Sequence record: PZ379074.1
Source: a phage
Strand: one strand, 5' to 3'
DNA: 64,000 bases
This document shows positions 1 to 32,489 of this stretch, piece after piece; position 1 is the first letter of the stretch; every line of letters begins with the position of its first letter. A program made the position numbers and the translations under genes. A model generated the notes under the pieces. It had not been told where the DNA came from, made no database searches, and worked only from the letters and a program-made list of their open reading frames with translations.

Positions 1-1
1 T

Positions 2-553
2 AGCAGCCTTACGTTCTGCGATGGCTTTGCGACGTTCTTCAGCTTCTTTCTTACGCTGTTCTTTCTGCTGTTCTGCAGCTTCTTTCGCCGCAATCTTAGC
101 AGCTTCACGCTCTGCCTTGCGTTTCGCTTTAGCTTCTTCTTTGGCCTTCTCTTTTTCGGCCTTCGCTGCAGCACGGGCTTGATCACGCTCAGCTTTCTTG
201 GCCGCAGCCTGCTCAGCTTTCAGGCGCTTGGCTTCTTCTTTAGCCTTTGCCTTTTCGATTTCTTTTGCTGCTTTAGCGGCTTCACGCTCTGCCTTCTTAG
301 CAGCAGCCTTTTCTGCACGCTCTTTAGCTTTCTTAGCTGCTTCTTCAGCACGCTTCTGAGCCTTCTCATCAGCAGCTTGCTTGCGTTTCAGCGCAGCTTC
401 TTCACGCTTGGCTTGTTTTTCCTGCTCACGCTTCTGGCGTTTTTCTTCGGCTTCTTTCTTTTTAGCCAGGCGTTTTTCTTCAGCCACGCGACGACGTTCT
501 GCTGCAGCTGCTTGTTTTTCTTCTTTAGATAATACTTTGATTGCTTCGGCCAT
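2..553 (-). CDS. Partial CDS (N-terminal part in window, runs off the left edge): Lys/Ala/Glu-rich low-complexity coiled-coil protein
   Basis: Minus-strand ATG at 553 preceded by AAGGA; frame checked open codon by codon to position 2; translation begins MAEAIKVLSKEEKQAAAAERRRVAEEKRLAKKKEAEE; absent from ORF track because there is no stop in the window. Confidence 0.5.
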   Translation of the reverse strand, partial: MAEAIKVLSKEEKQAAAAERRRVAEEKRLAKKKEAEEKRQKREQEKQAKREEAALKRKQAADEKAQKRAEEAAKKAKERAEKAAAKKAEREAAKAAKEIEKAKAKEEAKRLKAEQAAAKKAERDQARAAAKAEKEKAKEEAKAKRKAEREAAKIAAKEAAEQQKEQRKKEAEERRKAIAERKAA

Positions 554-712
554 ATTCACAGTCCTTAAATAAATTAGTTTATTTTATATTCCCCGTTTGG
601 GATAACTTAATTATGCCTTCAGTTGCCGCCAGTAGCAACTAAAAACTATGGCGGCAATGCCACTTTAATTAAACTGATTTTCAGTTTTATTTTTCGTAAA
701 TTTACGTCAACA

Positions 713-1897
713 TTAACGCGCTTTCAAATCACGGTACACGGTCAGATTCTTCTTGGCACGGGTGATAGCGGTGTACATCATCTTGGAGTACGGAACGCCG
801 CGCAAGATTTCTTCCAGCACGCACACATTATCCCACTCGCTGCCTTGCGATTTGTGCACCGTGATTACATAGCCATAGTCCATGCCTCCAACAGCGCGTT
901 GGGCCTCTTTGCGCACTTCCTGATCAGTAGAGAAGGAAAGAGGATTAATCTTAACCTTTATATCTTTACCATCAGTCAATGAACGCAAGTTGACATACAT
1001 TATTTCATTCGACTCATCTTCATCCCTTTCAAAGTCCGGCACTGGCTCATAGCTAATAACAATCCCTTGCTCGCCATTACAGAATCCTGGCCCGTGTTGG
1101 TTGAAGGTGCAAATAACCTTCTCACCGATTCCTGGCATTGGCGTTATACGTCCGCTCACTTGCCGTAATAATGAATTCCATTTATCTTTGGTGCTATTAT
1201 AGGAGCAAATAATTTGATCATCTTCGCCCATGAATTTCTTTAACGCAGTAACGCGCGGCGATTCTGCCAATACTTTGACGTCATCGTATTCACGCGGAGG
1301 AAGTCGGTTGCCTTGGCGCACGAAGAAGGAGGCACGGATGATGTTGGACTCTTTCCCCTGCCGCATGATTTCTGTTAACAGAACGTCAACAGCTTCTTCA
1401 GTAAAGTAGGCGGCGGCTTTTACCGGAGGGACTTGTCCAATGTCGCCTAATGCCAGCACAGGGATGCGGTGATCAAGAAGACGCTCTGTGTCCCACTCGC
1501 CAACCATCGACGCTTCATCGAGTACAACAAGGTGCGGCCTTTCATCCAGCTTTGACTTTCTCGAAAAGATTGGCTTATTGTCGTCATTCACGCCGCGCAC
1601 GTTATAGATGAACTGGTGAAGGGTCTTAGCGCCACGACAGCCTTTTTGCTTTAATCGGCTTGCAGCCTTTCCGGTCGGCGCAATATAGATAGCGCCGTAC
1701 TCACCGACACATCGGCGCACAATCTCGCGAGCAATAGAGGTTTTACCAGTCCCTGCATAGCCAGCAATGAAAAACACGCGCTTCGTCGTTTTACCGTCCT
1801 GCAATCGCTTGTACCATGCAACGGCCTTCTCGATGGCATCGATTTGTTGCGCGTTAAACTGAATCACTGGCTCATCATTAAATTCTGGAATGTTCAT
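713..1897 (-). CDS. SF1 DNA helicase, Dda/RecD-like
   Basis: 394-aa ORF; Walker A GYAGTGKTS, Walker B VVLDEASMV, C-terminal SF1 helicase motifs (VHKSQGSEWD). Confidence 0.85.
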   Translation of the reverse strand: MNIPEFNDEPVIQFNAQQIDAIEKAVAWYKRLQDGKTTKRVFFIAGYAGTGKTSIAREIVRRCVGEYGAIYIAPTGKAASRLKQKGCRGAKTLHQFIYNVRGVNDDNKPIFSRKSKLDERPHLVVLDEASMVGEWDTERLLDHRIPVLALGDIGQVPPVKAAAYFTEEAVDVLLTEIMRQGKESNIIRASFFVRQGNRLPPREYDDVKVLAESPRVTALKKFMGEDDQIICSYNSTKDKWNSLLRQVSGRITPMPGIGEKVICTFNQHGPGFCNGEQGIVISYEPVPDFERDEDESNEIMYVNLRSLTDGKDIKVKINPLSFSTDQEVRKEAQRAVGGMDYGYVITVHKSQGSEWDNVCVLEEILRGVPYSKMMYTAITRAKKNLTVYRDLKAR

Positions 1898-2223
1898 TAT
1901 AACTCCACTACGCTGTCAAGGTCCAGATATACTGGAATAAAATGGCAATCTTCTTTTCGTTCAAACATCTCACCATCAACATGGCTGAAGAAAACAGTTG
2001 TGTTTGGTATCTTCCATCCTTTCTCGTCGCGCACTAAGTACGCCATGGATTCAACAGGGATGTACAGCGATACCGGATTTGCGGCAAAAATAAATTTGAT
2101 TCTGTCTGGTTGACCCAGGAATCGCATGATTGTTAGGCTTGAATTCAATCTTGTATTAAGGAAGGACTCAACGACTCCGACGTGTGTTGCACGTTCGCGT
2201 TGCTTCGTCTCTTTTTCGTTCAT
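1897..2223 (-). CDS. Hypothetical protein
   Basis: 108-aa ORF with 4-nt start/stop overlap to the downstream helicase gene. Confidence 0.45.
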   Translation of the reverse strand: MNEKETKQRERATHVGVVESFLNTRLNSSLTIMRFLGQPDRIKFIFAANPVSLYIPVESMAYLVRDEKGWKIPNTTVFFSHVDGEMFERKEDCHFIPVYLDLDSVVEL

Positions 2224-2326
2224 TTCAGGCGACCTTTGTTAGTGCGGAAATATTTTCTGATAGTATAATTGCAGATATAGTATAAAGCAAAGTAAATCGA
2301 AATTGTGAACTAAATGGTAAATATTG

Positions 2327-2355
2327 TTGACTTTGTATCACTCAATATTATACTG
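2327..2355 (+). promoter_or_regulatory. Sigma70-like promoter candidate (TTGACT, 16-nt spacer, TATACT)
   Basis: Hexamers read directly in the divergent intergenic region upstream of the 2384 gene. Confidence 0.35.
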
Positions 2356-2383
2356 CAGGTATTGATAACCGAAGGAAAGAAAG

Positions 2384-3466
2384 ATGGCTAGTTTAAGAGA
2401 AGAAGCAAAAATAATCGAAGAGTTTTTAACAGAACTCCAAAGAGGCATTCCAGAAGATGAGCGCGTCATGACGGTGTTTGCGCCTGAAGCAACGGTACAG
2501 ACTGACGAGCGCGGCAAGAAGATTAACAGCAGCTTCTGGCCTAAGCCTTGGAAGTTGGGAAAGCCGCTGATGCAACATCAGAACGGTTACGCCTGCATAA
2601 GTTCAATGCGTAAGTCTCCCAACCCAAAGACGGGTGAGATGCGATACTGGCGTACAGAGTCGGCCTTTGGTCACGGCATGGCGATGATGGTCGACGACAT
2701 CGGTCACGGTAAAGGGTCCAAAGGCGATTTAGATTTGGAATTCTTTTTTGAGCGACTGAAGCCGACTGTCATCGTCGAGACTTCACCGAACAACCACCAG
2801 CTTTGGTACTTCTTTAAAGAACCGATTGACCATCTTATTCAGTTCAAAGCGTTCCTTGGGTCTTTCGTTAACATGGTACTCAAGAAGGGCGGCGACAACA
2901 CGATTAAAGACGTAACGCGCGTGGGCCGTGTTCCTGGGTGCATCAACAACAAGCGTGTGACTCACGACGGCCCCTATAAATATGTCGATGAGAACGGCGA
3001 CCCGTTCCGCTGCCGACTTGTCCATGCGGACTACTCATTGCGCTACACCATCGAAGACATTTGTCAGGCATTTGGCTTTCACGTCGTCATGGCGCAAAAG
3101 CGTGAGATTCAAATTGACGTCGATGAATACAAGTATGATGCTGTTTGGTATAAAATAGCCCAGCAGATTCTATCGCGCAACAAAATGGGTGAAGGGTCTG
3201 ATGGCGACGTCATCGAGAACATGTCAGGCAAGTGCCGCATAATCTGTCCTTGGGGTGAAGAACACACCAACGGCGACCCGTATGGCGCTTACTTTCGCGG
3301 CCCTATTCCTGGTGCAGAACATGAGTTTGTGTTCGGTTGCGCCCACGACTGTCACCGGAAAGGGGAAGGCAAGAAAGGTTGGACTGCTTTTGTTGAAGCA
3401 ATCGTCATGCCTTATATTGAGAATCAACTTGACATGATAAATCGTCGTGCAGGTGGCATAAAATAG
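2384..3466 (+). CDS. Putative primase-polymerase-like replication protein with C-terminal Cys/His cluster
   Basis: 360-aa ORF, RBS AAGGAAAG; MMVDDIGHG (DxD-like) and TSPNNHQLWY motifs; C-terminal CPWGEEH...CAHDCH; function is inference only. Confidence 0.5.
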   Translation: MASLREEAKIIEEFLTELQRGIPEDERVMTVFAPEATVQTDERGKKINSSFWPKPWKLGKPLMQHQNGYACISSMRKSPNPKTGEMRYWRTESAFGHGMAMMVDDIGHGKGSKGDLDLEFFFERLKPTVIVETSPNNHQLWYFFKEPIDHLIQFKAFLGSFVNMVLKKGGDNTIKDVTRVGRVPGCINNKRVTHDGPYKYVDENGDPFRCRLVHADYSLRYTIEDICQAFGFHVVMAQKREIQIDVDEYKYDAVWYKIAQQILSRNKMGEGSDGDVIENMSGKCRIICPWGEEHTNGDPYGAYFRGPIPGAEHEFVFGCAHDCHRKGEGKKGWTAFVEAIVMPYIENQLDMINRRAGGIK

Positions 3467-3524
3467 TTTGCTTTTATTTTCATAGCAACTATAATCATTT
3501 TATGAACTGAAGCAGAGGTGATTC

Positions 3525-3671
3525 ATGCAAAGCGAAGAATTGAACATCGAGGTTGAATGTCTGTTAAAGTCGTTAGAACCTAAACCAGCAGAGCTTCCGA
3601 CCCTTCAAGGAGTCATGGCTCACCATCAAGCGGCTGCGGCCCAACACTACTCTGAATTTGTTAAGGAATAA
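3525..3671 (+). CDS. Small hypothetical protein (48 aa)
   Basis: ATG preceded by GAGGTG; packed between flanking genes; below ORF-track size cutoff. Confidence 0.35.
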   Translation: MQSEELNIEVECLLKSLEPKPAELPTLQGVMAHHQAAAAQHYSEFVKE

Positions 3672-8188: not shown

Positions 8189-8190
8189 TT

Positions 8191-9007: not shown

Positions 9008-9243
9008 TGGAAGATTATATCAACGCTATGTATATGGCATTCTATGTCGTGCAACTTCCCAATGGCGCGGTATTTTATGGCGAGTATACCTTTGACGTTC
9101 AATATGACGTTTCAGAGCGTACAGTGTTAACAAGGGAGTTGATTGCGGACCTTAAGGGCGACATCAAGCGCGTCGCGCGGCAGCAGTTCAATTTGGATGA
9201 CACCGTCATCGTTCGAATTACCGGAATAACAGAGGTGCAATAA
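9007..9243 (+). CDS. Hypothetical protein
   Basis: 78-aa ORF, start overlaps upstream stop. Confidence 0.5.
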   Translation: MEDYINAMYMAFYVVQLPNGAVFYGEYTFDVQYDVSERTVLTRELIADLKGDIKRVARQQFNLDDTVIVRITGITEVQ

Positions 9244-9572
9244 TGACCCGTGATCAGATACTCGCCGCGCATGAGCGTGGATTGATAAAGGAAGTTTGGA
9301 AGAAGGCCAATGCCTTTGCTGATTCTTATTACTTCTTAAAGAAGTGCATAAAAGAAAATGCAAGAATGGGCAACACGGTATTGACTTTCAATCTTCTATC
9401 TTATGGTGATAAGCTTAATGCAATATGCGCTTGTCGTCTCACCAGTATGAAATTTGAGAGATTGGGTGACGGAGAGTTGACCATCTATCGATTCTCCCAC
9501 AGGACGGGAGATACAAAGATAACAAGGACGCGTGACCAGATAGAGATTGACCTGCTCCACTATGTAAAATGA
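9243..9572 (+). CDS. Hypothetical protein
   Basis: 109-aa ORF, start overlaps upstream stop. Confidence 0.5.
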   Translation: MTRDQILAAHERGLIKEVWKKANAFADSYYFLKKCIKENARMGNTVLTFNLLSYGDKLNAICACRLTSMKFERLGDGELTIYRFSHRTGDTKITRTRDQIEIDLLHYVK

Positions 9573-9576
9573 ATAT

Positions 9577-9656
9577 CAAAAAGGTGAGCTGAATGCTTGC
9601 CTTTTCTTTTATCAATACTTATACTCTTTTCATCAAGACTAACAAGTGAGGTGAAT
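9577..9656 (+). repeat. Intergenic cassette copy 1: hairpin plus U-tract (terminator-like) followed by TATACT -10-like element
   Basis: AAAAAGGTGAGCTGAATGCTTGCCTTTTCTTTTATC...TTCATCAAG; near-identical to 10829-10904. Confidence 0.5.
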
Positions 9657-9657
9657 T

Positions 9658-9975
9658 ATGATTTACTTAGGAATGGACGAGGGTGCTTACAAAGACCTTT
9701 CAAGGGTGCCAAACGTTAAGTTAGACACAGCTGTACACATCAAGCCTTGGCCAATCGCCCACCCAGACGTAGTTGTACCAGTCGCTCCTGGCACGCGTTA
9801 CGTGGCCATTGATGACGACGGAGTCATTCACTGTTATTCGGAAAAACCAAAGTATATAGAGCAATATCACGGTTGGTTCTTGGACGAGCGTGCAATGGCG
9901 CGTTACTGCGGCGAAGTCGGTCTGGAAGGCTGGAGCTTCAAGGCTAGTGAATCGTGTGTCGAGGTGCAATTATGA
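9658..9975 (+). CDS. Hypothetical protein
   Basis: 105-aa ORF, RBS GAGGTG. Confidence 0.55.
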   Translation: MIYLGMDEGAYKDLSRVPNVKLDTAVHIKPWPIAHPDVVVPVAPGTRYVAIDDDGVIHCYSEKPKYIEQYHGWFLDERAMARYCGEVGLEGWSFKASESCVEVQL

Positions 9976-10190
9976 ATGCCGCGCTGGGTAAGTTGTCTTT
10001 CAATAAACGCAACGAGCTGCGCATGGTATCGCGCTTTCAACAAACGCATTTATCACTAATCAAGATTGCAAACAAGGCCTACTCTCTAAATTGTCCTGAA
10101 GAAGAATGGAAAGAATTGAATGAGCGTCGTAAACAATTACAAAAGGCTGCATTCAAGCTGCAGCAATATGCCATGGAGTATGCAAAATGA
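9972..10190 (+). CDS. Hypothetical protein
   Basis: ATG at 9972 after GAGGTG (track ORF begins at 9954). Confidence 0.45.
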   Translation: MNAALGKLSFNKRNELRMVSRFQQTHLSLIKIANKAYSLNCPEEEWKELNERRKQLQKAAFKLQQYAMEYAK

Positions 10191-10570
10191 GAATGAAGCG
10201 TTGCCCTTACTGCCACGATGTAATGCACCTTCCACACGAAGAGTTTGTGCAGCACATGACTAACTGTGATAAGAATCCTAATAGCGAAAGCCAACTTGAA
10301 GAAAGAATGTTCTTGGTGTCATTCAAAGCTTCTGCTTATGAAGTGCAACATTCTTACGGCGCACCAAGTACGATTTACTGTCCAACAACATTGAGAAGCG
10401 ACATCGACTCAATTCAGCTTGCGGCCTGGATTAACGTTAAGGAAGGAATCACGCCGCACTTTATTGCGCGCATCCAATCTCAGATTCTACAAATCAAGCG
10501 CGAATACAACCGTGACATAACTGAAGTGAAGGTGCTGTCTATCACTCCTATGAATAAGGAGTTGCCGTGA
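10187..10570 (+). CDS. Hypothetical protein with CxxC/His motif
   Basis: 127-aa ORF; CPYCHD ... HMTNC. Confidence 0.5.
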   Translation: MRMKRCPYCHDVMHLPHEEFVQHMTNCDKNPNSESQLEERMFLVSFKASAYEVQHSYGAPSTIYCPTTLRSDIDSIQLAAWINVKEGITPHFIARIQSQILQIKREYNRDITEVKVLSITPMNKELP

Positions 10571-10827
10571 ACAAGGGTCCGATGACTAAGTTGGCCGTTG
10601 CCGCGCGGAAGCTTCGACAAGCCGTTAATGGGTCGCGGCCCGTGGTGTTAACACTCGACGACGCAAAGGCACTGGTAGAGCTACTCGACGAGCACAACCG
10701 ACGCAAGAATCTGGAGAACACATTACGCTGGCGCGTTACTCCGAAAGGGCGGGAGAGCGAAAAGAAAGCTTACTTGCGGCGTAAACTAAGGTCGGTCGGC
10801 CTTCACGAAGAGGCGAAGAATATTTAA
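10567..10827 (+). CDS. Hypothetical basic protein
   Basis: 86-aa ORF, GTG start overlapping upstream stop; ATG at 10582 is an alternative. Confidence 0.45.
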   Translation: MNKGPMTKLAVAARKLRQAVNGSRPVVLTLDDAKALVELLDEHNRRKNLENTLRWRVTPKGRESEKKAYLRRKLRSVGLHEEAKNI

Positions 10828-10828
10828 T

Positions 10829-10904
10829 TCAAAAAGGTGAGCTATATGCTTGCCTTTTTATTTGCCTGTATTATACTTAGTTCATCAAGCAAAGGAGATT
10901 TGAT
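10829..10904 (+). repeat. Intergenic cassette copy 2 (terminator-like hairpin plus -10-like element)
   Basis: AAAAAGGTGAGCTATATGCTTGCCTTTTTATTTGCC...TTCATCAAG; paralog of 9577-9656. Confidence 0.5.
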
Positions 10905-10905
10905 T

Positions 10906-11202
10906 ATGAGTTACGACGAAAGGTTTGGCAGAAGTGGATTGTTCCACGACGCTGTACACAAAGACAGCAAAGATGTTGTCTGCGCATTCAAGGTTGATTC
11001 TTACGGTACGCTGAAACCTTTTAAGGTCGGCGAAACATACAAGCTGTTTCACGGCTGGTTGACGCGTCGCAACAACTTGCCTGATATGGAAGTCTGGTGG
11101 ATAGAATATAAGGGCCAGGCCCATCGCTGCAAGGTTGTAGAGGTGCGCGGCGTCAAATACTATCAATCGATTATCAGCGGTTTTGTGTTTAAGGGGATTT
11201 AA
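10906..11202 (+). CDS. Hypothetical protein
   Basis: ATG at 10906 with AAGGAG 7 nt upstream; track start 10837 would lie inside the hairpin. Confidence 0.55.
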   Translation: MSYDERFGRSGLFHDAVHKDSKDVVCAFKVDSYGTLKPFKVGETYKLFHGWLTRRNNLPDMEVWWIEYKGQAHRCKVVEVRGVKYYQSIISGFVFKGI

Positions 11203-11204
11203 TT

Positions 11205-11510
11205 ATGAGTACCGAAGCGATGAAGAAAAAGATTTTGAACGCTTTGCAAGAAGCTGTGAACTGTGGTGCCATTAAAACCTTTACTGAAAGGCAAGTCGGT
11301 GAGGTGACGGTGCACGGATTCAATAATAACAAAAACGGAATTGCTGCCATAATGCTGTTGAAGAACAGCGATGACACATTCATCCTTTACGTCGGCGGAT
11401 ATGAGCTTATCGTTGATGATTTGTTCATCACTTGCGCTGACGGCCTTAACCCAATGTTAACGTTCGAGCGGCGCGGCATCCGTGTTGCAACGTTTGGAGG
11501 GAAGCTATGA
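11205..11510 (+). CDS. Hypothetical protein (paralog family, GAIK motif)
   Basis: 101-aa ORF; N-terminal AVNCGAIKTF resembles 12017 ORF. Confidence 0.5.
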   Translation: MSTEAMKKKILNALQEAVNCGAIKTFTERQVGEVTVHGFNNNKNGIAAIMLLKNSDDTFILYVGGYELIVDDLFITCADGLNPMLTFERRGIRVATFGGKL

Positions 11511-11800
11511 GACTAAGTCTAGCGCAAATTCAAACATTGTACCGGATGGAAGACGGAACGCCATACATGCTGCGCGGCGACCGCAAGAAGGCTTATGAAA
11601 AGCGGCCATCACTGTTTCACGACATCAATGCGCCATCAATCCCTGTCTTATTCCGGTTGGGCCTTGTTGATTGGGCGGTGCCAGGGGAGAAAGACCCGAC
11701 GCGCTATTCATCCGTGGTGATGACAAAAGCAGGTCGCGCGGCATTAAAAGAGATTAAAGAAAATATGGCTGGAGGTAAATATTATGACATCCAATCTTAA
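11507..11800 (+). CDS. Hypothetical protein
   Basis: 97-aa ORF, ATGA overlap. Confidence 0.5.
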   Translation: MRLSLAQIQTLYRMEDGTPYMLRGDRKKAYEKRPSLFHDINAPSIPVLFRLGLVDWAVPGEKDPTRYSSVVMTKAGRAALKEIKENMAGGKYYDIQS

Positions 11801-12020
11801 AGCCCGTTTATTATTCATCAAGCCGCATGTGCCGTATAAGATTAGTAAGCGCACCTGGCTTAACATCTACAACCGCAGCGGCGACCGTTGTTTGTACAAG
11901 GCAAAGCGGCGCAAGAAGGTATATTTAAAGGCGGTGATGTCGCAACCCGTCGATGCATTCAACATCGGCGAAAATGAATTGTCAATCGGCTATCAAATTG
12001 AACTCGGAGCAAAGAAATGA
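11784..12020 (+). CDS. Hypothetical basic protein
   Basis: 78-aa ORF, RBS GGAGGT. Confidence 0.5.
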   Translation: MTSNLKARLLFIKPHVPYKISKRTWLNIYNRSGDRCLYKAKRRKKVYLKAVMSQPVDAFNIGENELSIGYQIELGAKK

Positions 12021-12526
12021 AAATCGAACAACTCGAAGCAGTATTGGAAATGGCTGTAAAGGCAGGCGCAATCAAAAGCTATCGTCGCGAGAAGTCAGAT
12101 AGCGATAAGGTGTTTTGTCGCAACTTCTATATCGTTGGCAACCTTAATGACCACTACACCATAGAGTGGTATATCAATATCATGACCCTTAAGTCGCGCA
12201 CCATGGAGCTTTGGTGTGATGACATTTGTCTTTCTCATAGTCATCCGTGCTATGACGTTGCGCTTGGATTCTTTTATAAAAGCAACCAACCAATCGCACA
12301 CATCGGTGAGAGGCATGAGCACTTGAAGGAGAAGCCAATGGCGAGTGACGGCTGGATTGATTGGGATGGTGGAGACTTGAATCCAGTCCCAGGTAAGAAG
12401 GTGCTTTACGTGCTGCGCGACGGCGCTACAGCAACAAAGCCGATTGCATCAGATGAATTGCGCTGGGAGAAGATTGACGATGCTTATGCAGCCGACATCA
12501 TCGCTTATCGGGTCGTGGAGGAATAA
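12017..12526 (+). CDS. Hypothetical protein (paralog family; shared C-terminal domain)
   Basis: 169-aa ORF; C-terminal NPVPGK...IIAYRVV domain shared with 13411 ORF. Confidence 0.55.
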   Translation: MKIEQLEAVLEMAVKAGAIKSYRREKSDSDKVFCRNFYIVGNLNDHYTIEWYINIMTLKSRTMELWCDDICLSHSHPCYDVALGFFYKSNQPIAHIGERHEHLKEKPMASDGWIDWDGGDLNPVPGKKVLYVLRDGATATKPIASDELRWEKIDDAYAADIIAYRVVEE

Positions 12527-12867
12527 TGGAAGAGCAAGAAGGCCGTGAGCTAACGTTCGACGAGCAAATGCAAGAGCTTCAGCGCACATCGCCGCTGCGC
12601 GGTAAGGTTGTTGACATCGAAGCGAGCGAATCCAACCTCACCCAGTGGCGGCTTAAGTGCACCAGCACAAGCAAGGATATGTTAAGCTTCAAAGTCGGTC
12701 AGACTTATTTGCTTTATGAGGCAAAAGGACTTATTATTGATGGAAAGCAAATTGTCTTTACTTTTGTCAACGGCATGAGATGGTTTGTGAAGCGTGATGT
12801 CGAGGGCCGTGACATGTTTGTCGCAGGCTTTCCAGAAACAAGATTCCAATTGGAGAAGGTTAAATGA
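12526..12867 (+). CDS. Hypothetical protein
   Basis: 113-aa ORF, RBS GGAGG. Confidence 0.55.
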   Translation: MEEQEGRELTFDEQMQELQRTSPLRGKVVDIEASESNLTQWRLKCTSTSKDMLSFKVGQTYLLYEAKGLIIDGKQIVFTFVNGMRWFVKRDVEGRDMFVAGFPETRFQLEKVK

Positions 12868-13196
12868 AATTGAAATGGTACGTGGACCCTGAGCCGACAG
12901 GCCAATACAGGTCATTCCAACGTCGCGGCTGGCCGACTTGTTACAGCGGCAATCCCGATAAAGAAGATTGCGAGCTTCTTGCCGCGATAGTAAGTCTTAA
13001 CCATGACGGCTATGAAGGCCACTACGCGAGAGCAACCAACCTTCGGCTCAAGGTGCGCATCCATTTCAAGGTCGCAGGCGAGGACCGCACCGGACTCTCC
13101 AAGGAAGAGTTCAGCAGCATCGCTGAAGCAAAGGCATGGCTAAAAGCATTCTACAAGGCAAATCCTAAATTTTATCCAACTAAGGATGCATCATGA
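12864..13196 (+). CDS. Hypothetical protein
   Basis: 110-aa ORF, ATGA overlap. Confidence 0.55.
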   Translation: MKLKWYVDPEPTGQYRSFQRRGWPTCYSGNPDKEDCELLAAIVSLNHDGYEGHYARATNLRLKVRIHFKVAGEDRTGLSKEEFSSIAEAKAWLKAFYKANPKFYPTKDAS

Positions 13197-13414
13197 CCGA
13201 TAAACAATACGCAGTCGGGCAACGTGACATCGAACAACTCGACGAGGGCGGCTATTATACGCGCCACATCTATGCCATGACTCATGAAGGACTTTACAGC
13301 AAGTCGGACATCGCCGCTGAATTGGCCCATCGTGACTTGCAGATTGACATGTTGCGTCTCGCGCTTGAGAAGCAAACGCAGATTGCCATTGAAATTTTGG
13401 AGAAGTTAGAATGA
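13193..13414 (+). CDS. Hypothetical protein
   Basis: 73-aa ORF, ATGA overlap. Confidence 0.5.
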   Translation: MTDKQYAVGQRDIEQLDEGGYYTRHIYAMTHEGLYSKSDIAAELAHRDLQIDMLRLALEKQTQIAIEILEKLE

Positions 13415-13830
13415 TACAACGTTACGATGTTGATTATTGCACGCAGCACGCTTGCACTTGCGAAGTTGTAAAGGATAATGAAGGCGGCTACGTTGAATAT
13501 GAGGACTATGCCGCGCTGGAAGCGAAATATAATGAAGCGCAACGCGAGTTGGCTGCATTACGCTCACAGGTCCGTGATGCATCGGCGCTCGTTAAGCAGT
13601 TGCACGACGTTGTTGCTACTATAGGCGTGGATGATGATGCGCCGAAGGAGGAAGCGTGGACCGTGTGGTTTGGTGGCGCGAATCCGGTGCCTGGGAAGAT
13701 GGTTGAGTTTGAATTACTCAACGGTTATAAATCAAAAGAAGCCGTGCCAGCAGACAACTTGAACTGGGGCGAGGTAACAAGTCCGACTGGGGCAAAGATT
13801 ATTGCTTATCGGGTCGTTAAGGAGGGGTGA
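13411..13830 (+). CDS. Hypothetical protein (paralog of the 12017 ORF C-terminal domain)
   Basis: 139-aa ORF; WTVWFGGANPVPGK ... IIAYRVV. Confidence 0.55.
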   Translation: MIQRYDVDYCTQHACTCEVVKDNEGGYVEYEDYAALEAKYNEAQRELAALRSQVRDASALVKQLHDVVATIGVDDDAPKEEAWTVWFGGANPVPGKMVEFELLNGYKSKEAVPADNLNWGEVTSPTGAKIIAYRVVKEG

Positions 13831-14363
13831 TGGGCGGCTTTTGGCGTAAAGCTAAATACTCTAAAGACTTGCATTACTTCTTGGATAATGAAGGCATAAG
13901 TATATGTGGCAGGTACAGAAGGGATAATGAATCAGCGTCGCAAAGTAATAAGGCTGAATGGTTACTCAAGGAAGAGTGCAAAGTTTGCCGCAAACGTTTT
14001 TGTGACAAAACCAGCATGACTGATTACATAAAGGAGCTTAGAAAAAGATGCAAAAGCCCGCAAGAGTTTGCCATAACTCTTTGGGATGATCACCCTGAGT
14101 TGAGAAGTGAATGGTTAAAGACTGATGCAATCAATTACATCTTCAAATCGAAATACAGGACGACAGCAAGATATAAAATGGATGAAGCAGTAATTCAAAA
14201 GGTATTTTCTTATTGGAGGGATACAGTCGATATTGTGAAAATAAAGAAATACCAAAACGAAGTGCTGCTGGAATTGGAGAGGATTGGCTATAAAGTCACC
14301 AATAAAATGATAAAAGAAGAAATAAAAAGGAGAACGGAAAAGGGGTTGATGCCTAAGATATAG
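13827..14363 (+). CDS. Hypothetical Cys-rich basic protein
   Basis: 178-aa ORF, RBS AAGGAGG; CGRY ... CKVCRKRFC. Confidence 0.55.
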   Translation: MMGGFWRKAKYSKDLHYFLDNEGISICGRYRRDNESASQSNKAEWLLKEECKVCRKRFCDKTSMTDYIKELRKRCKSPQEFAITLWDDHPELRSEWLKTDAINYIFKSKYRTTARYKMDEAVIQKVFSYWRDTVDIVKIKKYQNEVLLELERIGYKVTNKMIKEEIKRRTEKGLMPKI

Positions 14364-14599
14364 TGAATAAACGAACACCGTTTACGTGTTTTGAAGAATG
14401 GAATGTGTACAATGGGTCGCTTTATGCGGCCTTTTGTTGTTTGGGTCGTGTTTTGCGATGGAATAATTATGAGGTTGTGTTTTATTTATTAATTGTGCGG
14501 AAATATTTAGAAATATATTTCATAGGTCGTGTCTATTGGTCCGTGGTGTTTGTTAGGACTTATCTATGGATTGAAATTTTAGTGTCGTGAAACGTGGTG

Positions 14600-15060
14600 T
14601 TTGAACACATTTGATACGCGTAAAATACGGCTAAAAATTAAGCGTATCATGGCTGCAGGCCGCGCCGTTACTGAGTTCCTATTTTCAAAAGTGGTACACC
14701 CTTACGGATGATACGTCATGGTTTTTTATCCGTATCAGTGTACAGCCCTTGCCGCGCCTGGCCTGTACATTAATCTTACGGATGATACGGATAAAACTGG
14801 GCACCATTATATATATAATTTGAAAAATTAATTAACTCCATTTTAAAAACATTTAAATTATTTTTTTCATATCCTCATACTTATGTTAATTTATATATTT
14901 AACGTATCATCCGTAAGATATAAGTAAAAACAAAGACTTGCGGCAATACGGATGATACGTTATGATACGCTTCGACCAGCCAGCAGCGGCTAAGTCATTG
15001 ATTTGCATAACAAGCAGCGAAAGGGATGGATTTCTTTTATCCGTATCAAACAGTACACCA
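14600..15060. repeat. Iteron-like locus A: inverted and direct copies of CGGATGATACG around an AT-rich core
   Basis: CTTACGGATGATACG at 14701 and 14775; TTATCCGTATCA at 14727 and 15037; inverse copy at 14902; ACGGATGATACGTTATGATACG at 14948; AT-rich core 14808-14900; TACGCGTA at 14614. Confidence 0.6.
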
Positions 15061-15198
15061 CGCACCACGGTCCGTTATCCATTCAGCACTATGATTTGTG
15101 TACGTTTATAGCCATAATGAACATCAATCTGCACTTGAATATAATGTCCATCCATTGTATAATTCACACTATTAATTTGCACTATGGGATTTTGCACT

Positions 15199-15672
15199 AT
15201 GAGTCAAGATTATGTAGCGATGCCTGAAGACTTTGAAGACCCGCGATTTGCAGAGCACAATCAGGCTTTATTCGATGAGTTCATTGACCTTGTTATTCAG
15301 GGCCATGACATGCGCGCAGCTTTTGCACTAGTATTTGGAATGGAAGTTGCAACGGATAACTACACTGGCCAGCGAATCCTTTGCGCGCAACGCAATCCAT
15401 ACTACAAGATGCGCTTCAAAAAGCGTATGGAAGAGATGCCACTCAAGGATTTGTGGAGCGTAAAAGGTGCAATTCACAATTTGGTCAAGCTTGTGCGTGA
15501 TCCAGAAGTCGCGGCGTCAGCCAAACTTAATGCTATTCGTGAACTGAATATCATCTACGGCATCACGATGATTGATGAAAACGGCAATAGTAAAATGGGC
15601 CGTTCCATGGACGATTTCTACAAGGATTTTGGAGAGGCGGCCAAAGAAGGTGAGCAATTCTCCCGCCACTAG
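15199..15672 (+). CDS. Hypothetical protein (157 aa); ATG embedded in an 11-mer copy
   Basis: ORF MSQDYVAMPEDFEDPRF...; no obvious SD; start codon is the ATG of TTTGCACTATG. Confidence 0.45.
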   Translation: MSQDYVAMPEDFEDPRFAEHNQALFDEFIDLVIQGHDMRAAFALVFGMEVATDNYTGQRILCAQRNPYYKMRFKKRMEEMPLKDLWSVKGAIHNLVKLVRDPEVAASAKLNAIRELNIIYGITMIDENGNSKMGRSMDDFYKDFGEAAKEGEQFSRH

Positions 15673-15691
15673 CCAATTTGCACTATAAAAC

Positions 15692-15725
15692 GGCCCTAGA
15701 ACACATTTTCTCCACTTCTAGGGCC
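15692..15725. other. Perfect 10-bp inverted repeat (GGCCCTAGAA / TTCTAGGGCC) with 14-nt loop
   Basis: Read directly; immediately after the 15199..15672 stop and an 11-mer copy; no clear U-tract on plus strand. Confidence 0.4.
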
Positions 15726-16100
15726 ATCGGTAATACGACGGGGAAGGTTACAACCATAAACGCGTTATAAAGTGTATTATTATAAGTCATCTTTTAGTCA
15801 CTTTCCGTAACAATTTACGACCTTCAACCGTCCAATCGAACGACTCCACCAGCAGATTTGCACTATAACCTAAGACTACCCGACCTTTCTCGTTATCGAC
15901 CCGCCAGCAAGTCTCGAATAGCATCTTATTTGCACTATTAACTATCGCCGCAACTCGCGTAGGATAAGCGCAATTTGCACTATGGTCATAAAGGGATAAG
16001 GTGCGACCACTTCCGATGGACAACGTAGCGATGAGAATGAGCGTATTCATAAGCCACCAATTTGCACTATGAAAAGCGACCCCGAAGGGCCGCCATTCTA

Positions 16101-16727
16101 TTAGATAATCTGGAAGGTGTAGGACTTGTTGCCGAACTCAAAGTTCAAGCGCCCAGCTTCCTTAAGCTTCATGCGGAAGCGAATGTGTTTGCTATCCGGC
16201 AAGCCCAGCGCGGCGAACGCTACGCGGACCGATTTGAACTCGCCTACACCCTCGACCATGACACCGTTACGGGTGAGACGCTTTTGCGCCACTTCCTTAT
16301 TATCCCAGCTTTTTGCAATACCTTCGCTATTCGAACGGCGATGGGAAGGAGTTCCATTTTGCACTACGCAATTTGCACTATCGTTTAAACCGCTCTTAAC
16401 GAAGGCTTCATATTCTTCGTCGGTCATCGCGTCGAGTTCTTCCTGGGTCGGCTCAGCCTTTTTAACGACCGCACGCGCCTTATGCGTTTTTACATCGCTG
16501 GACACTTCCTCGCGCGGCTTCGCGTCGGGAATGGGCGATTCGTTGGACGGCTCATCGAGCGCGTTTAAGGACTCGATTAACGCGATTACGCGAGTCTCGG
16601 CGGTCCGGCGGTCCGCGAATTTCTTAATCGGCTTCGAACCGGAATTTGCATTATAAAATGCAACGAGGTCGGCGGTCTTAGTTGCGATAACGTCGCCGCT
16701 AGTAGAAAAGCGATTTAAGCTAACCAT
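16101..16727 (-). CDS. Hypothetical protein; 5-prime half CpG-rich, 3-prime half of ordinary composition
   Basis: 208-aa ORF with minus-strand RBS AGGAG in context CTAGGAGTTTATTATG; contains two 11-mer copies at the composition change. Confidence 0.55.
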   Translation of the reverse strand: MVSLNRFSTSGDVIATKTADLVAFYNANSGSKPIKKFADRRTAETRVIALIESLNALDEPSNESPIPDAKPREEVSSDVKTHKARAVVKKAEPTQEELDAMTDEEYEAFVKSGLNDSANCVVQNGTPSHRRSNSEGIAKSWDNKEVAQKRLTRNGVMVEGVGEFKSVRVAFAALGLPDSKHIRFRMKLKEAGRLNFEFGNKSYTFQII

Positions 16728-16807
16728 AATAAACTCCTATTTGTTAGGGCGCTAGGCGCGAAAGAATTTTATTAAAGCGCCGCGCACGACGCTCTAAAAA
16801 TCCTCTC

Positions 16808-17122
16808 TTACTCTTCGTCGTCTTCGATTAATTCGAGGGCGAAGGCGTAAGCTTTGCTATCGTAATTAACTAAAACGGCGAGTTCGAACTCGTTAATAAA
16901 CGCCGTTTTACCGCATAAATTTAATTCCGCATCGACTTCGAAGAATCCGTTTTCGTCGCGCTCTAAGCGAGAAGCAGCGAGTTGCTCGATTACCGTCGCG
17001 TCGTTAATTTCTTCGCCTAAGCGAACGCCGGAGAATTTAGCGAGAATTTCGCCGTAAGTAAGCGTAACGCCCTGGACTTCGGCGGTTGCGTTTTCGAGGG
17101 TAAAGCGGGTAACGATAGCCAT
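16808..17122 (-). CDS. Small acidic hypothetical protein (104 aa, C-terminus ELIEDDEE)
   Basis: RBS context CTAGGAGTTTATTATG; CpG-rich codon usage. Confidence 0.55.
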   Translation of the reverse strand: MAIVTRFTLENATAEVQGVTLTYGEILAKFSGVRLGEEINDATVIEQLAASRLERDENGFFEVDAELNLCGKTAFINEFELAVLVNYDSKAYAFALELIEDDEE

Positions 17123-17346
17123 AATAAACTCCTAGTTGGGAGAGGCGTTAACGACCTATTCGTTAACTCATCCCGTCCCGATATGAGTACATTATAATAT
17201 AGTGTAGAAAAAAGTAAAGCACTTTTTCGATAAAAATGCGATAAATTATTTTATCTTTTTTCTTTACTTCTTCGTACACTCGCGTATACTTGTTTATATC
17301 GAGACGGGCGATGTCCCTTTCTTCTACTAGCATCGGGAGCTTTATT
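17123..17346. promoter_or_regulatory. Divergent intergenic control region with repeated TTTATATCGAGA(C/G)GGG elements and TATAAT-like hexamer
   Basis: CTTTACTTCTTCGTACACT plus TTTATATCGAGA repeated at 17255-17300 and 17660-17700; inverted copies of AAAGTAAAGCACTTTTTCG at 17212 and 17648. Confidence 0.4.
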
Positions 17347-17649
17347 ATGACTACTTTAATCTCTTCCATCCTTACTTACGACGAAGACCGCTTAACCGTT
17401 CGCTCTCTTATCGCCGCCGTTAACGCGGAACTAGAATCTAGCGCCATTAAGGTCCGCGCGGTCGCCTTCATCGGCCTTTCCTTCGACGATATGAAGTATG
17501 CCGAACGTAGCGCTATCCGCTTCGCGAAGACCGACGACGAAGCCGTTACCCTTATCGAGACGGTTACGCCGCGCGACGAAGCGTTAATTATCGTCGAGTA
17601 TATCGACGTAGAAGGCGATAAGGCTTATAAATATTTTATCGCAGAATAA
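17347..17649 (+). CDS. Small acidic hypothetical protein (100 aa)
   Basis: ATG at 17347 after GGGAGCTTTATT; CpG-rich. Confidence 0.55.
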   Translation: MTTLISSILTYDEDRLTVRSLIAAVNAELESSAIKVRAVAFIGLSFDDMKYAERSAIRFAKTDDEAVTLIETVTPRDEALIIVEYIDVEGDKAYKYFIAE

Positions 17650-17756
17650 CGAAAAAGTGCTTTACTTCTTCGTACACTAAGACTATAATGTTTTATATCG
17701 AGAGGGGATGAGGTAGCGAATAGGTCGCTACCCTCCCGACCAACTAGGAGATTATT

Positions 17757-18047
17757 ATGATTACTTTAGCCGCTATCCGTAACGCTCGCGCCGAAACTTC
17801 CGAAAACTCTAACGTATTTGGCGAAAAACTTAAAAACGTTTATCTCTTTAACGTAGATGCGACTATCGAGGAGCTTCATAGTCCTATCGATTTTAGCGAA
17901 TTTACGGAACTCGAAGAGGAAGATATTTCTACTTTCCGCGTTACTATCGAAGGCAAGGTTTATTTTGCTACGGAGTTCGGCGGCGAATATCTCGCGGTAT
18001 CCGAAGGCGAAGGCCGTTACTCTTTCTTTAAAATCGTCTCCTTATAA
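17757..18047 (+). CDS. Small acidic hypothetical protein (96 aa)
   Basis: RBS context CTAGGAGATTATTATG preceded by hairpin GTAGCGAATAGGTCGCTAC. Confidence 0.55.
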   Translation: MITLAAIRNARAETSENSNVFGEKLKNVYLFNVDATIEELHSPIDFSEFTELEEEDISTFRVTIEGKVYFATEFGGEYLAVSEGEGRYSFFKIVSL

Positions 18048-18049
18048 TA

Positions 18050-18758
18050 CCCTTCCGTTACTAATAGGCCGCGCTTAGTCGCGGCTTTTCTTCGTCCCTA
18101 TCCCGATGCGCGTCTACGCGAAAACTCCTTTATCCTTCCCTTCGTCGTCGCATAATCTTCTTCGAGATGCTCCTTAGTTCGCATAACAGGTATTACGTTA
18201 AATGGAGAACATCGCGTAAGTCCTTGTTTTATATAGACACCTATATCGGACCGTTAGGGCGGGTCGCGTAAGTCGTTGTTTTATAAAGGCGCAAAACTTT
18301 CCCTTCGTTCCGAACTAAAACGAGGAATATGCCGACCCTTCGTCCGAAAATAGTATGCATGCGAAATTACATGCATCTAGAATAATCCCCACCGATATTA
18401 TCCTACACGCAATCATTCGCTTTCGAATCATTATGCTTCATATTATTATGCATCGAATCATTCTCTTTCGAATTGTAACGCTGGAAACTGTAACGGCGAT
18501 TGATTATTGCGTTCGTGTGGTTTTTAGGGCATGGGTCTTTTGGTGCGTTTTGCTACTTGATGAAATTTGCGGTACACTAATCAAAATACGACACATTTGG
18601 TCCACTAACTTTTCAAAGAAAAAGTCCTAGACAGTACCGTACTATTTTGCACCCACAGGAAATTTGCAGTACACTCCTGCGCGGCAGGCAAAATAAAGGG
18701 CCGCACTAAGCGACCCACTAAGCGACCCACGATTCACGGTTAAAGCAACATCCACCCA
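18050..18758. repeat. About 700 bp without a convincing ORF, rich in short direct repeats
   Basis: CGCGTAAGTCNTTGTTTTATA x2 (18216, 18267); CGAATCATT x3 (18420-18470); TGTAACG x2; ATTTGC(A/G)GTACACT x2 (18563, 18662); ACTAAGCGACCC x2 (18705-18730). Confidence 0.4.
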
Positions 18759-29589: not shown

Positions 29590-30510
29590 ATGACGATACC
29601 AATCAGCACGTTTCCTCTATCTGGACAAACGCCAGTATTGCCTGCTGTATATGCTAACGGTTTGGCGATTGTTTCGGAATTCACATCCGATAAAAACCTG
29701 ATTGTTCCATTGAGTCCGCCATTGGCGTCTGGATACAATTCAGTTGGCCAGTTCTTTATGATCGGTAATGATGGCGATTCTACCAGCAAGCCGAATCTGA
29801 CACTTTCAGTTCCCAAAATGAACATAACAGACGTGCAGACTGGTTTAACTGCATCTACGATCACCATCGCTTTTGGAGAAGCAGTGATTATAGGCATGGA
29901 GTCTGGAGGGTCCAAGAATGCTGTCGCCGTTAAGGTAGTCAAATCCAGCAGCAACCAATACACACTACCAGCGGCAACGGCTTCTGTTCTTGGCGGCGTC
30001 AAAATAGGAAGTGGCATAAGCGTTGCAGGTGACGGTACAATTAGTGTGACTCAATACTCATTACCGATTGCATCAGCATCAACCTTGGGTGGCATAAAGG
30101 TAGGAACGACACTATCAATTGATGGTTCTGGCGTCCTTAATGCTGCTGCAAGCACTGTGCAGAACGCAAGCAACAGCGTAAGCAATCCTCCGACAACTCT
30201 GGTGAATCTGGCAGCCTTAAACCTGCCTGCAGGGAAATGGCTTGTGACAGCAAGTCAGTTGACTGTCGCGACAGCAGGAGTTCAAGCGAATACCGGAATT
30301 ACAGTCAAACTGTCAACAAGTAATTCAGATATTACGGATGATGCATTTACAATGTCAGCTGGCATTCGGGCTGCAGGTCGTTTCGGCGGCAATATCCCAA
30401 CAAAGATAATTACTCTTGCCGCGCCTGGCAACGTGTATCTAAACTATCAATGCACAGACGCATTGACATCTACCGTTTACGGACAGATCACCGCAATTAA
30501 GTTGAACTAA
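29590..30510 (+). CDS. Structural protein with fiber-like Gly-rich repeats
   Basis: ATG at 29590 after GAGGT; repeats VLGGVKIGSGISVAGDGTISV and TLGGIKVGTTLSIDGSGVL. Confidence 0.6.
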   Translation: MTIPISTFPLSGQTPVLPAVYANGLAIVSEFTSDKNLIVPLSPPLASGYNSVGQFFMIGNDGDSTSKPNLTLSVPKMNITDVQTGLTASTITIAFGEAVIIGMESGGSKNAVAVKVVKSSSNQYTLPAATASVLGGVKIGSGISVAGDGTISVTQYSLPIASASTLGGIKVGTTLSIDGSGVLNAAASTVQNASNSVSNPPTTLVNLAALNLPAGKWLVTASQLTVATAGVQANTGITVKLSTSNSDITDDAFTMSAGIRAAGRFGGNIPTKIITLAAPGNVYLNYQCTDALTSTVYGQITAIKLN

Positions 30511-30520
30511 AGAGGAAGTT

Positions 30521-30658
30521 ATGCAAAAGATTATTCAGTCACGTTACGTTAAAGTGCGAAATATTAATTGCAACTCTTTGCTTTCTTGGAAATGGGCTGT
30601 TTACGACTCGATGCTGATTGGCGTTTTAGTTGCTGGAGTGCTTTTTAATATTCACTGA
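30521..30658 (+). CDS. Small hydrophobic peptide (45 aa)
   Basis: RBS AGAGGAAG; C-terminal MLIGVLVAGVLF; below ORF-track cutoff. Confidence 0.35.
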   Translation: MQKIIQSRYVKVRNINCNSLLSWKWAVYDSMLIGVLVAGVLFNIH

Positions 30659-30689
30659 ATCGCCTGGCAATGGATTGCCGCAGGATTTT

Positions 30690-30975
30690 ACGCGTATAAT
30701 GACGTATCATCCGTATCAAGTAAGTAGTTGTTTTCAAAAGAATCTTACGGATGATACGGATGATACGCGTTGCCGCGATACTTTATAAGAGTTTATAAAA
30801 AAATAAAATTATATATCTAATTTAATTTTATTTTTTTATAAACTCTTATATATGAAAAGTATCCGTATCATCCGTATCATCCGTAGCACACCAGTGATAG
30901 CGCGGCTTATACACCGATACGGATAAAAATACACCTCATTTTATCCGTATCATCCGTATCACACTAATTAAGGCG
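30690..30975. repeat. Iteron-like locus B: tandem and inverted CGGATGATACG copies flanking a 60-bp AT-rich palindrome
   Basis: CTTACGGATGATACGGATGATACG at 30744; ATCCGTATCATCCGTATCATCCG at 30861; TTATCCGTATCATCCGTATCA at 30951; AT palindrome 30783-30850; TACGCGTA at 30689. Confidence 0.6.
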
Positions 30976-31070
30976 CGGCTATATCGGTTGTTATACATAT
31001 TCAAACCATAATTATTGTTTGCCTAAGTTTTTTTCATTAGATATAATACACAATACTTATTTGAGGGTGG

Positions 31071-32489
31071 ATGCGAATGCAAACGGCACGCGAAATTGAC
31101 AAAAATGGATTCTTGACGATTGTGGGTTGTCCCATTTCGTCATTTGGCATTTTTGATTATTCTGCAGGTCAGGTTGGACTTGATGGTGATCCGAATCGCA
31201 TCGTAAAAGTTTATCGCCCAGAGTCAGCGGTGAAAGACCCCGAAGCGATAGATTCATTCAAAAATATCCCTTTCATCGACAATCACGAAATGCTTTCTGG
31301 ATTCGAAGGTGATGAGGATAACACAGCACCCGAAGAGTATGGCGTTGATGGCGTTCTAACTGGCAATGTTTATTATGACAAGCCATGGATGCGCGGCGAC
31401 CTTAAAGTTTTTAGCCGTCGTCTGAAGAAAGCCATCGATTCTGGAAAGGTTGACTTGTCTTTGGGCTATGACTGTGAATTCATCATACAGTCTGGAGAGT
31501 TTGACGGGCAGCCGTATGAAGTGGTACAGACAACTCTTCGCGGCAACCACATTGCTCTCGTGGACGTTGGTCGAGTACCAGGTGCACGGGTGCTGGATGG
31601 TCGTTGCTTTGACCATCTTTGTTTGACGACTGTAACACCATCCAACGAGGATTTAGACATGCCAAAACCGTTAAAAGGTAAAGCGCGTGATAATGCTGTT
31701 GAACAGCTGAAATCACTGATCCCTGCGCTCGAACAATTTCTGAATGAAGAGAGCACCGAAGCTGCTCATCAGGACGAAGTTGAAGTGAAAGCAGAAGAGA
31801 AGGATTCAACCGAAGAACGTGAAGAAGTGATGGTTGATCCAGAAGTTAAAGCAGAAGCTGAAGAGACTCCAGAAGGTGAAGAGAAGTTTGAAGTTGAAAC
31901 TGAATCTCACGCTGGCGGCGAGCTTCCGCAACTGATCAGCCAAATCGAAGCACTTATTGCAAAACTGAAAGGTGGCGCGGTAGGTGATGAAGAAGAAGTT
32001 GAAGCCGAAGTCAAAGACGAAGAAGTTGAAGTCAAGGCTGAAGATGTATCACCTTGCGACAAAGCTGAAGATGTGGTTAGCGGCCTGCAAAACAGCAACG
32101 TAAAGGGGGCTTCGGTCGAAAAAGATGACAAACCGACAAAAGCGGCGAAAGCGTCGCCAGGTCCAGCAAAAGGGGAACACTCAATGGCATCTGATTCAGC
32201 AGTTGCTGCTTTCTACGCTGATTCTGCTCGTAAGAATAGCCTCTACCAGCGCCTGTCTAAAGTTGTTGGTGCCTTTGATCATGCAACTATGGACTCCAAG
32301 TCCGTAGCGAAATATGGCGCTAAAAAGTTAGGCTTGAAGTGCGTTGATGGTGCTGAGTTTGACGTGGTGGATAATTATCTGCGCGGCGTTGAACACGGTC
32401 AAAAACAGCGTGTAGTCGCAAAACAAAAGGCCGCTGCGGATTCTGCAGCAACTGACGAAGCATTTGAAGCTTGGTTGAAAGGGGAATAA
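31071..32489 (+). CDS. Putative prohead protease/scaffolding protein with acidic EVxVKAE repeats
   Basis: 472-aa ORF upstream of the capsid gene; central Glu-rich repeats (EVEVKAEEK, EVKAEAEE, EVEAEVKDEEVEVKAED). Confidence 0.65.
   Translation: MRMQTAREIDKNGFLTIVGCPISSFGIFDYSAGQVGLDGDPNRIVKVYRPESAVKDPEAIDSFKNIPFIDNHEMLSGFEGDEDNTAPEEYGVDGVLTGNVYYDKPWMRGDLKVFSRRLKKAIDSGKVDLSLGYDCEFIIQSGEFDGQPYEVVQTTLRGNHIALVDVGRVPGARVLDGRCFDHLCLTTVTPSNEDLDMPKPLKGKARDNAVEQLKSLIPALEQFLNEESTEAAHQDEVEVKAEEKDSTEEREEVMVDPEVKAEAEETPEGEEKFEVETESHAGGELPQLISQIEALIAKLKGGAVGDEEEVEAEVKDEEVEVKAEDVSPCDKAEDVVSGLQNSNVKGASVEKDDKPTKAAKASPGPAKGEHSMASDSAVAAFYADSARKNSLYQRLSKVVGAFDHATMDSKSVAKYGAKKLGLKCVDGAEFDVVDNYLRGVEHGQKQRVVAKQKAAADSAATDEAFEAWLKGE

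Follow-up and report, generated by a model that had tools for sequence, protein, structure and literature searches.

A perfect AT-rich palindrome private to one Wifcevirus genome sits in a conserved, duplicated iteron-flanked element

What does a long palindrome built almost wholly of A and T signify between the head genes of a phage? The question is raised by positions 30784–30850 of the 64,000-nt stretch of DNA analyzed here (the window), which comes from a Wifcevirus, a PB1-like myophage of Escherichia coli, and which is 99% identical to OZ035737 and 94–99% identical to most of the 29 other Wifcevirus records. The palindrome lies inside a 412-bp non-coding gap bounded on the left by a 45-aa open reading frame (30521–30658) and the head-fibre gene, and on the right by the prohead protease gene. 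We refer to the element that occupies this gap as locus B; the promoter of the protease, scaffold and capsid genes lies downstream of it. The palindrome and its right-hand neighbors are as follows:

30784–30814: left arm of the palindrome, 31 nt, within which 30788–30803 is the derived (converted) tract, as delimited by the repeat search and alignments
30815–30819: centre or loop of the palindrome, ATCTA, 5 nt
30820–30850: right arm of the palindrome, 31 nt, ancestral sequence that is near-invariant in the genus and the apparent template of the conversion
31019–31047, + strand: near-consensus sigma-70-type promoter (TTGCCT-17-TATAAT) of the protease–scaffold–capsid genes, with 29 of 29 columns invariant
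31071–32489, + strand: prohead (head-maturation) protease gene, the right neighbor of locus B

An inverted repeat had been claimed at 30783–30850 in a first-pass annotation of this DNA, and it was recovered at almost the same place, far beyond chance expectation, with a total length of 67 bp rather than the 60 bp originally given. The two arms are 97% complementary, with a sole mismatch at 30812, and 62 of the 67 bases are A or T (G or C occurs at 30789, 30791, 30817, 30843 and 30845). Within the window, the 28-nt arm sequence is found at the two palindrome sites only (zero expected), and the palindrome is the longest inverted repeat of the hairpin type; the second-longest local inverted repeat, at 54158–54246, has 25-nt arms that are 80% complementary and 39 nt apart. 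Secondary-structure prediction on both strands, which had been proposed as a check, yielded a strong DNA hairpin on each, at −22.5 kcal/mol for the + strand and −22.6 kcal/mol for the − strand (z = −11.4 and −9.0). Dinucleotide shuffles gave −4.9 ± 1.6 kcal/mol, and none of 200 folded as well. Folded as RNA, the same sequence gives a predicted hairpin of −27.6 kcal/mol. The potential for cruciform or hairpin formation suggested at first pass thus holds for the sequence of this genome, as judged from folding of both strands, and does not extend to its relatives, which have no hairpin.

Among the genomes compared, the perfect palindrome proved unique to this one. In an alignment of nine Wifcevirus genomes, 31 of 33 columns of the right arm were invariant, and the left half was identical in the eight relatives at all 35 columns, with the window alone differing. 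Relative to the closest genome, the window carries seven substitutions and a 4-nt deletion, every one of which falls within 30788–30803, as opposed to a single difference in the remaining ~390 nt of the 411 nt compared. Each of these changes matches the complement of the right arm, and the converted tract, 16 nt in place of 20, is its exact reverse complement. In the ancestral arms, 24 of 31 positions are already complementary, among them an inner stem of ~8–10 bp and the outer TATA. The stem is missing in all eight aligned relatives, and the homologous sequence from WFH folds no better than its shuffles (−4.0 kcal/mol, z = +0.4). None of the 29 Wifcevirus records in GenBank has the perfect hairpin or exceeds 97.8% identity over the gap, the window-specific arm was not found in IMG/VR or JGI metagenomes, and the perfect form was not found in GenBank phages. 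The AT-rich element itself, however, is shared by all 29 of these Wifcevirus records.

Textbook template-switch errors leave a cluster of changes by which one arm of a quasipalindrome is rewritten entirely from the other, and both components of this signature are seen here: complementary changes clustered in a single arm, and a partial inverted repeat that existed beforehand. From these comparisons, we infer that the perfect symmetry arose recently through a single template-switch (quasipalindrome-correcting) replication error, in which ~20 nt of the left half, elsewhere invariant, would have been replaced by a copy complementary to the right half. If so, the perfect symmetry is a mutational by-product and not a functional feature; nor can it be what was selected, because the left half found in every relative gives no hairpin better than shuffles. 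Fold-back chimeric reads, template switching in vitro during amplification or another fault in sequencing or assembly could also leave a perfect palindrome in one genome only, and palindromes are prone to such switching in vitro. We nevertheless consider an artefact very unlikely, given that the replacement is clean and in register with its flanks intact, that an artefact would need to dominate the consensus, and that the pattern is that of the classic quasipalindrome mutation in vivo.

It is barely credible that the palindrome itself is functional, whether as a cruciform signal or as a bidirectional intrinsic terminator between the portal/head-fibre and protease genes. Its intergenic position and the strong hairpins predicted for both DNA and RNA are what such a role would call for, yet none of the 29 relatives has the hairpin. 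A scan of 30300–31200 against Rfam returned nothing at threshold, with the only matches being to hairpin-like families such as plant miRNA precursors (37 bits versus a gathering score of 80). The rho-independent bidirectional terminator put forward at first pass was likewise rejected: the palindrome was not called by a terminator scan, its stem has at most two G–C pairs instead of being G+C-rich, its tails (UAUGAAAAG and AAAGUAUCG) contain no U/T run, and the hairpin is not conserved in the aligned relatives.

Judged by these alignments, the conserved object at this position is an iteron-flanked, AT-rich element and not the palindrome. Locus B spans ~30700–30961 (~260 bp) of non-coding, dyad-symmetric sequence in which an AT-rich core is held between inverted arrays of the 9-bp iteron GATACGGAT:

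30700–30718, − strand: outer left iteron pair
30744–30767, + strand: inner left iteron array, TTACGGAT GATACGGAT GATACG, directed towards the core
30772–30777: GCCGCG box, with inverted CGCGGC boxes at 30901–30906 and 30974–30979 (read from the sequence)
30861–30888, − strand: inner right iteron array, three ATCCGTATC-type units directed towards the core, with 28 of 28 columns invariant in nine genomes
30916–30924 (+ strand) and 30943–30961 (− strand): outer right iterons

The inner arrays contain a perfect 22-nt inverted pair, TACGGATGATACGGATGATACG at 30746–30767 and its complement at 30864–30885, and searches of IMG/VR found this 22-mer restricted to Wifcevirus genomes. Small variants exist within the genus: Bas101 has one 9-nt unit fewer in the inner left array, and Mansfield carries a G>T change in one iteron unit (alignment of 30741–30767). 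A longer form of the repeat, the 13-mer TACGGATGATACG, occurs ten times in the window, for which simple arithmetic predicts ~0.002 occurrences, and all copies lie either at locus B or at one other place, locus A; the iteron motif is likewise confined to loci A and B in the complete WFH genome. Locus A and its surroundings comprise the following features:

14701–15048: locus A, paralogue of locus B with the same iterons, just upstream of terS
14703 (+), 14777 (+), 14903 (−) and 14947 (+): copies of TACGGATGATACG in locus A
14728 (−), 14784 (+) and 15039 (−): 9-mers in locus A
14797–14899: AT-rich core of locus A, ~100 nt
14839/14840: left physical end of virion DNA and start of the direct terminal repeat, ...AATTAACTCC/ATTTT... 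(slash, position of the end)
14840–18540, + strand: inferred direct terminal repeat, 3,701 bp, from homology with WFH
15199–15672, + strand: gene for the small terminase subunit TerS (phmmer versus PDB 7UXE, the E217 small terminase, E = 7e-34), ~360 bp to the right of the terminus

The end of the virion DNA falls inside the locus A core, ~6 nt from the symmetry center of the inverted iterons (arms 14766–14789 and 14903–14926), and the same first base is given in five Wifcevirus records from four laboratories (WFH, WFC, Ro157lw, SP13 and Mansfield). Published terminal repeats measure about 3.7 kb in WFH and WFC (PMC6563267), 3,533 bp in Ro157lw by PhageTerm (PMC6454146) and 3,673 bp in Mansfield, the genome of which was "opened at the boundary" (PMC6753283). 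TerS is encoded by the first gene to the right of the virion end, and its orthologue is annotated as such in the Mansfield record; it is named only there, being a "hypothetical protein" in most Wifcevirus records, and the WFH homologue is annotated with a longer start, at 202. When the genes near locus A and within the terminal repeat were scanned against Pfam and PHROGs, TerS was the sole DNA-binding candidate. The stretch 18410–18496, inside the inferred right end of the repeat, lacks the iterons of loci A and B and instead contains three copies of (C/G)AATCATT (18411–18417, 18426–18432 and 18456–18462) and two of TGTAACG (18474–18480 and 18489–18495), which may serve as recognition repeats in cutting the right end.

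A collinear alignment of loci A and B extends over ~170 nt, through the left iterons, a GCCGC spacer, the AT core and the right iterons, and by this alignment locus B proves to be a collinear paralogue of locus A. The first ~45 nt of the terminal repeat have their homologue in the right arm of the palindrome. In locus B, the terminus corresponds to 30809/30810, which is 7 nt to the left of the central C30817, and the palindrome center (30815–30819) is 6–10 nt to its right. The cut context AACTCC/ATTTT is not present at this homologous place, where the sequence reads AAAAT/TATATATC in the window and TTTAAAAT/TATATATC in relatives. Locus A adjoins terS, and locus B is 15 kb away from it. The first-pass suggestion of an unwinding element or nick site was therefore right in direction, in that the palindrome overlies the AT core of an iteron-flanked element whose paralogue carries the virion end, and misplaced in its object, since these properties belong to the conserved core with its iterons and not to the palindrome.

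Two versions of the left flank of locus A were seen. One resembles locus B and has the tandem 22-mer (WFH, at 31490–31585 of the compared stretch, ECML-117 and FEC19); the other is divergent and occurs in the window (14690–14800) and, judging from a scan for the 22-mer, in WFC. In WFH and ECML-117, but not in the window, 46 nt of this flank are almost the same as in locus B, which suggests gene conversion between the two loci. Separately, an exact 15-nt match, CTTGCCGCGCCTGGC, occurs in the left flank of locus A (14748–14762) and inside the head-fibre gene (30415–30429), where the copy is ~330 nt to the left of the locus B iterons.

Comparison across genera shows the A/B pair to be an ancient arrangement, kept in Wifcevirus, Myosmarvirus and Pbunavirus with a repeat sequence of its own in each. 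The Serratia myosmarviruses Spe5P4 and MTx have the same architecture in the syntenic gap upstream of the protease gene, with an AT-rich quasipalindromic core and an iteron (ACGAAAAGTAA / TTACTTTTCGT) that differs from that of Wifcevirus. In MTx, the direct terminal repeat annotated with PhageTerm (1..3566) begins inside the paralogue of the protease-upstream element. An exact search of the whole Spe5P4 genome for the Myosmarvirus iteron ACGAAAAGTA found locus B only; the locus A copies are more degenerate, and it is in MTx that paralogy is demonstrated. The Spe5P4 record also repeats ~110 nt at both of its ends, which is an overlap from circular assembly and not a biological terminal repeat. 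Pbunavirus SN has, in the gap that precedes its protease gene, 22-nt dyad arms placed 192 nt apart with an AT-rich core between them, and a paralogue with a ~45-nt block in common lies upstream of terS. For Pbunavirus JG024, 36 of 161 long reads start at 59,376 ± 5, the restriction fragment attributed to pac fits this position, and only one peak of read starts was reported (PMC10913387). Position 59,376 falls between the dyad arms of JG024 locus A, placing virion ends in the locus A core in three genera.

Unlike the main iterons, which differ between genera, boxes of the form GCCGC(G) on the left and (C)GCGGC(A) on the right recur beside loci A and B in each of the three; in locus A of the window they lie, by eye and approximately, at 14751–14757, 14940–14944 and 14986–14990. 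A conserved protein, for instance TerS, may bind these GCGGC-type boxes. Two other classifications of the repeats were rejected. A miniature transposable element (MITE) would not be expected to have only two copies, syntenic in three genera and present in all 29 records, with no duplication flanking the arrays. The iteron also has some likeness to a DnaA box (TTATCCGTA versus TTATCCACA, 7 of 9 positions), which we judge coincidental, since neither the Myosmarvirus nor the Pbunavirus repeats are related to it.

What, then, could such a pair do? One answer is transcriptional control, whereby a phage regulator bound to the iterons would govern sigma-70-type promoters, that of terS at locus A and that of the protease, scaffold and capsid genes at locus B. 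Near-consensus promoters do lie to the right of both loci (15118–15163 and 31019–31047), and similar ones can be read from the sequence at the same places in MTx and Spe5P4. We find this account unlikely, however, since the inner iterons are 130–270 bp upstream of the −35 hexamer and surround the AT core rather than the promoter, the motif is absent from other late operons, and the DNA end in the core of locus A would be left unexplained.

Replication offers a second answer, and the proteins that bear on it are encoded in the left part of the window:

2384–3466, + strand: RepB'-type primase (Pfam PF16793, E = 4e-36)
4776–6446, + strand: VapE-like SF3 helicase resembling SaPI1 Rep (Pfam PF05272, E = 1.6e-28; PDB 7PDS, SaPI1 Rep, E = 4e-11)

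In SaPI origins, 6–12 opposed iterons flank a central AT-rich region, immediately downstream of rep, the product of which is a self-loading SF3 helicase-initiator (PMC9371898). Locus B has at least two opposed iterons on each side of its AT-rich core together with outer copies, and a Rep-like helicase is encoded in the genome; situated between head genes, it is not immediately downstream of rep. That feature is seen only at locus A of SN, JG024 and MTx. In Pbunavirus SN, an orthologue of the helicase (42% identity, E = 1e-74) is encoded directly upstream of locus A, and in JG024 and MTx a gene annotated as "DNA primase" adjoins locus A at the equivalent position, which we take to be the same orthologue. 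The distance from the end of the helicase gene to locus A is 200–400 bp in these three phages and ~8 kb in Wifcevirus (6446–14700), where mostly small open reading frames of unknown function intervene.

Two copies per genome are common for origins (P4 ori/crr, SPP1 oriL/oriR, HSV oriL/oriS) and hazardous for a site of exact cutting. From the architecture that loci A and B have in common, which does not include the cut, from the SaPI-Rep-like helicase and from the presence of two copies, we therefore favor a reading in which locus B is a candidate origin-type, initiator-bound unwinding element, a function to which we give about an even chance. A phage initiator would bind the iterons on both flanks and open the AT core, as in SaPI origins, and the best candidate for this role is the SaPI-Rep-like SF3 helicase acting with the RepB'-type primase. 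Locus A, where the same architecture is joined by the cut context at which terminase would make the genome end, would additionally serve as terminase entry and cut site, and locus B, without that context, would not. Several findings weigh against an origin: locus B adjoins no replication gene, GC skew does not switch there, the sole experimental property known for this family of elements is the packaging end at locus A, beside terS, which favors a terminase site, and the core is invariant in sequence among relatives, not just AT-rich. Core invariance hints at sequence-specific recognition, though divergence within the genus is too low to make this certain.

Packaging furnishes the main rival, which we regard as doubtful but a real possibility. 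Under this hypothesis, locus B is a paralogue of the terminase recognition site, a "pseudo-pac" at which TerS or an accessory packaging protein would bind the iterons or GCGGC boxes, as it would at locus A, with only locus A being cut; the uncut copy would serve the synapsis or sensing of concatemers, as proposed for gp16 of T4 and the homologous sites it has in genes 16 and 19, or would titrate terminase. Such a role would fit the virion ends found in the locus A core of three genera, the location of locus A ~360 bp upstream of terS, the collinearity of the two loci, flanking boxes included, and the repeats around a central cleavage zone that are typical of the pac sites of P1 and SPP1. On the other hand, a second recognition site would be a hazard in a genome with exact ends, and locus B lacks the cut context. 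The single peak of read starts in JG024 (PMC10913387) and the lack of appreciable DNA binding by E217 TerS in vitro (PMC9611059) also argue against it, as does a layout that is that of Rep-type origins, with the gene for a Rep-like helicase abutting locus A in two genera.

Returning to the origin-type reading, we can extend it into a model, in our view rather improbable, in which origin and packaging start form one module in PB1-like phages. The helicase and primase would open and prime the locus A core, terminase would cut the opened core, and in the genera with terminal repeats rightward synthesis would duplicate the 3.7-kb repeat. Locus B would then be a second origin without the cut motif, and the private palindrome would show that the core tolerates wholesale rewriting provided that it stays AT-rich and dyad-symmetric.

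The origins of PB1-like phages, which are widely used in therapy, are uncharacterized, and for no phage is the mechanism that generates long direct terminal repeats known (PMC6454146). An iteron-flanked core that holds the genome end, with a conserved twin upstream of the head genes, provides a handle on both questions, and the present isolate is a natural core mutant in which the left half has been rewritten into a perfect palindrome. It also cautions against taking a striking palindrome for a selected structure, since a recent templated mutation can produce one. No description of the A/B duplication or of the iteron anatomy was found in the literature searched, and the closest parallels come from other systems.

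The origins of SaPIs and other PICIs (PMC9371898) are alike in having short, opposed iterons on both sides of an AT-rich region and in being accompanied by a homologous helicase of the VapE/Rep type, and locus A of Pbunavirus and Myosmarvirus resembles them further in lying just downstream of the helicase gene. They differ in iteron length (5–6 bp in SaPIs versus 9 bp here), and the present element has two copies per genome, of which locus B sits among head genes and locus A has a core that is also the end of virion DNA. A small genome with two distant loci that contain the same initiator-binding repeats is likewise found in P4 (ori/crr) and SPP1 (oriL/oriR), although repeat sequences and layout are different. 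The alpha protein of P4 combines a primase, an SF3 helicase and a site-specific binding domain, and oriR of SPP1 is located in the late-gene region. Among packaging signals, the pac sites of P1 and SPP1 also have short repeated motifs around a central cleavage zone beside terS, and the gene 16/gene 19 pair of T4 comprises two homologous TerS-binding sequences per genome; compared with these, locus B has no known cleavage, and the phage genome shows exact ends and a 3.7-kb terminal repeat instead of headful permutation.

The palindrome has parallels of its own. Quasipalindrome-correcting mutations described under the Ripley model in E. coli and T4 similarly make an imperfect inverted repeat perfect, through substitutions and an indel in one arm that are predicted by the other. 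Those cases were selected with reporters, whereas the present one is deduced from the comparison of natural isolates and involves a long tract, with 16 nt replacing 20. The HSV origins oriL and oriS show the same combination of an AT-rich palindromic center, inverted boxes for an initiator (UL9) and more than one copy per genome, and the palindrome of oriL is both long and perfect. Their proteins are unrelated to those of the phage, however, and the palindrome that is conserved in HSV is here a private mutation.
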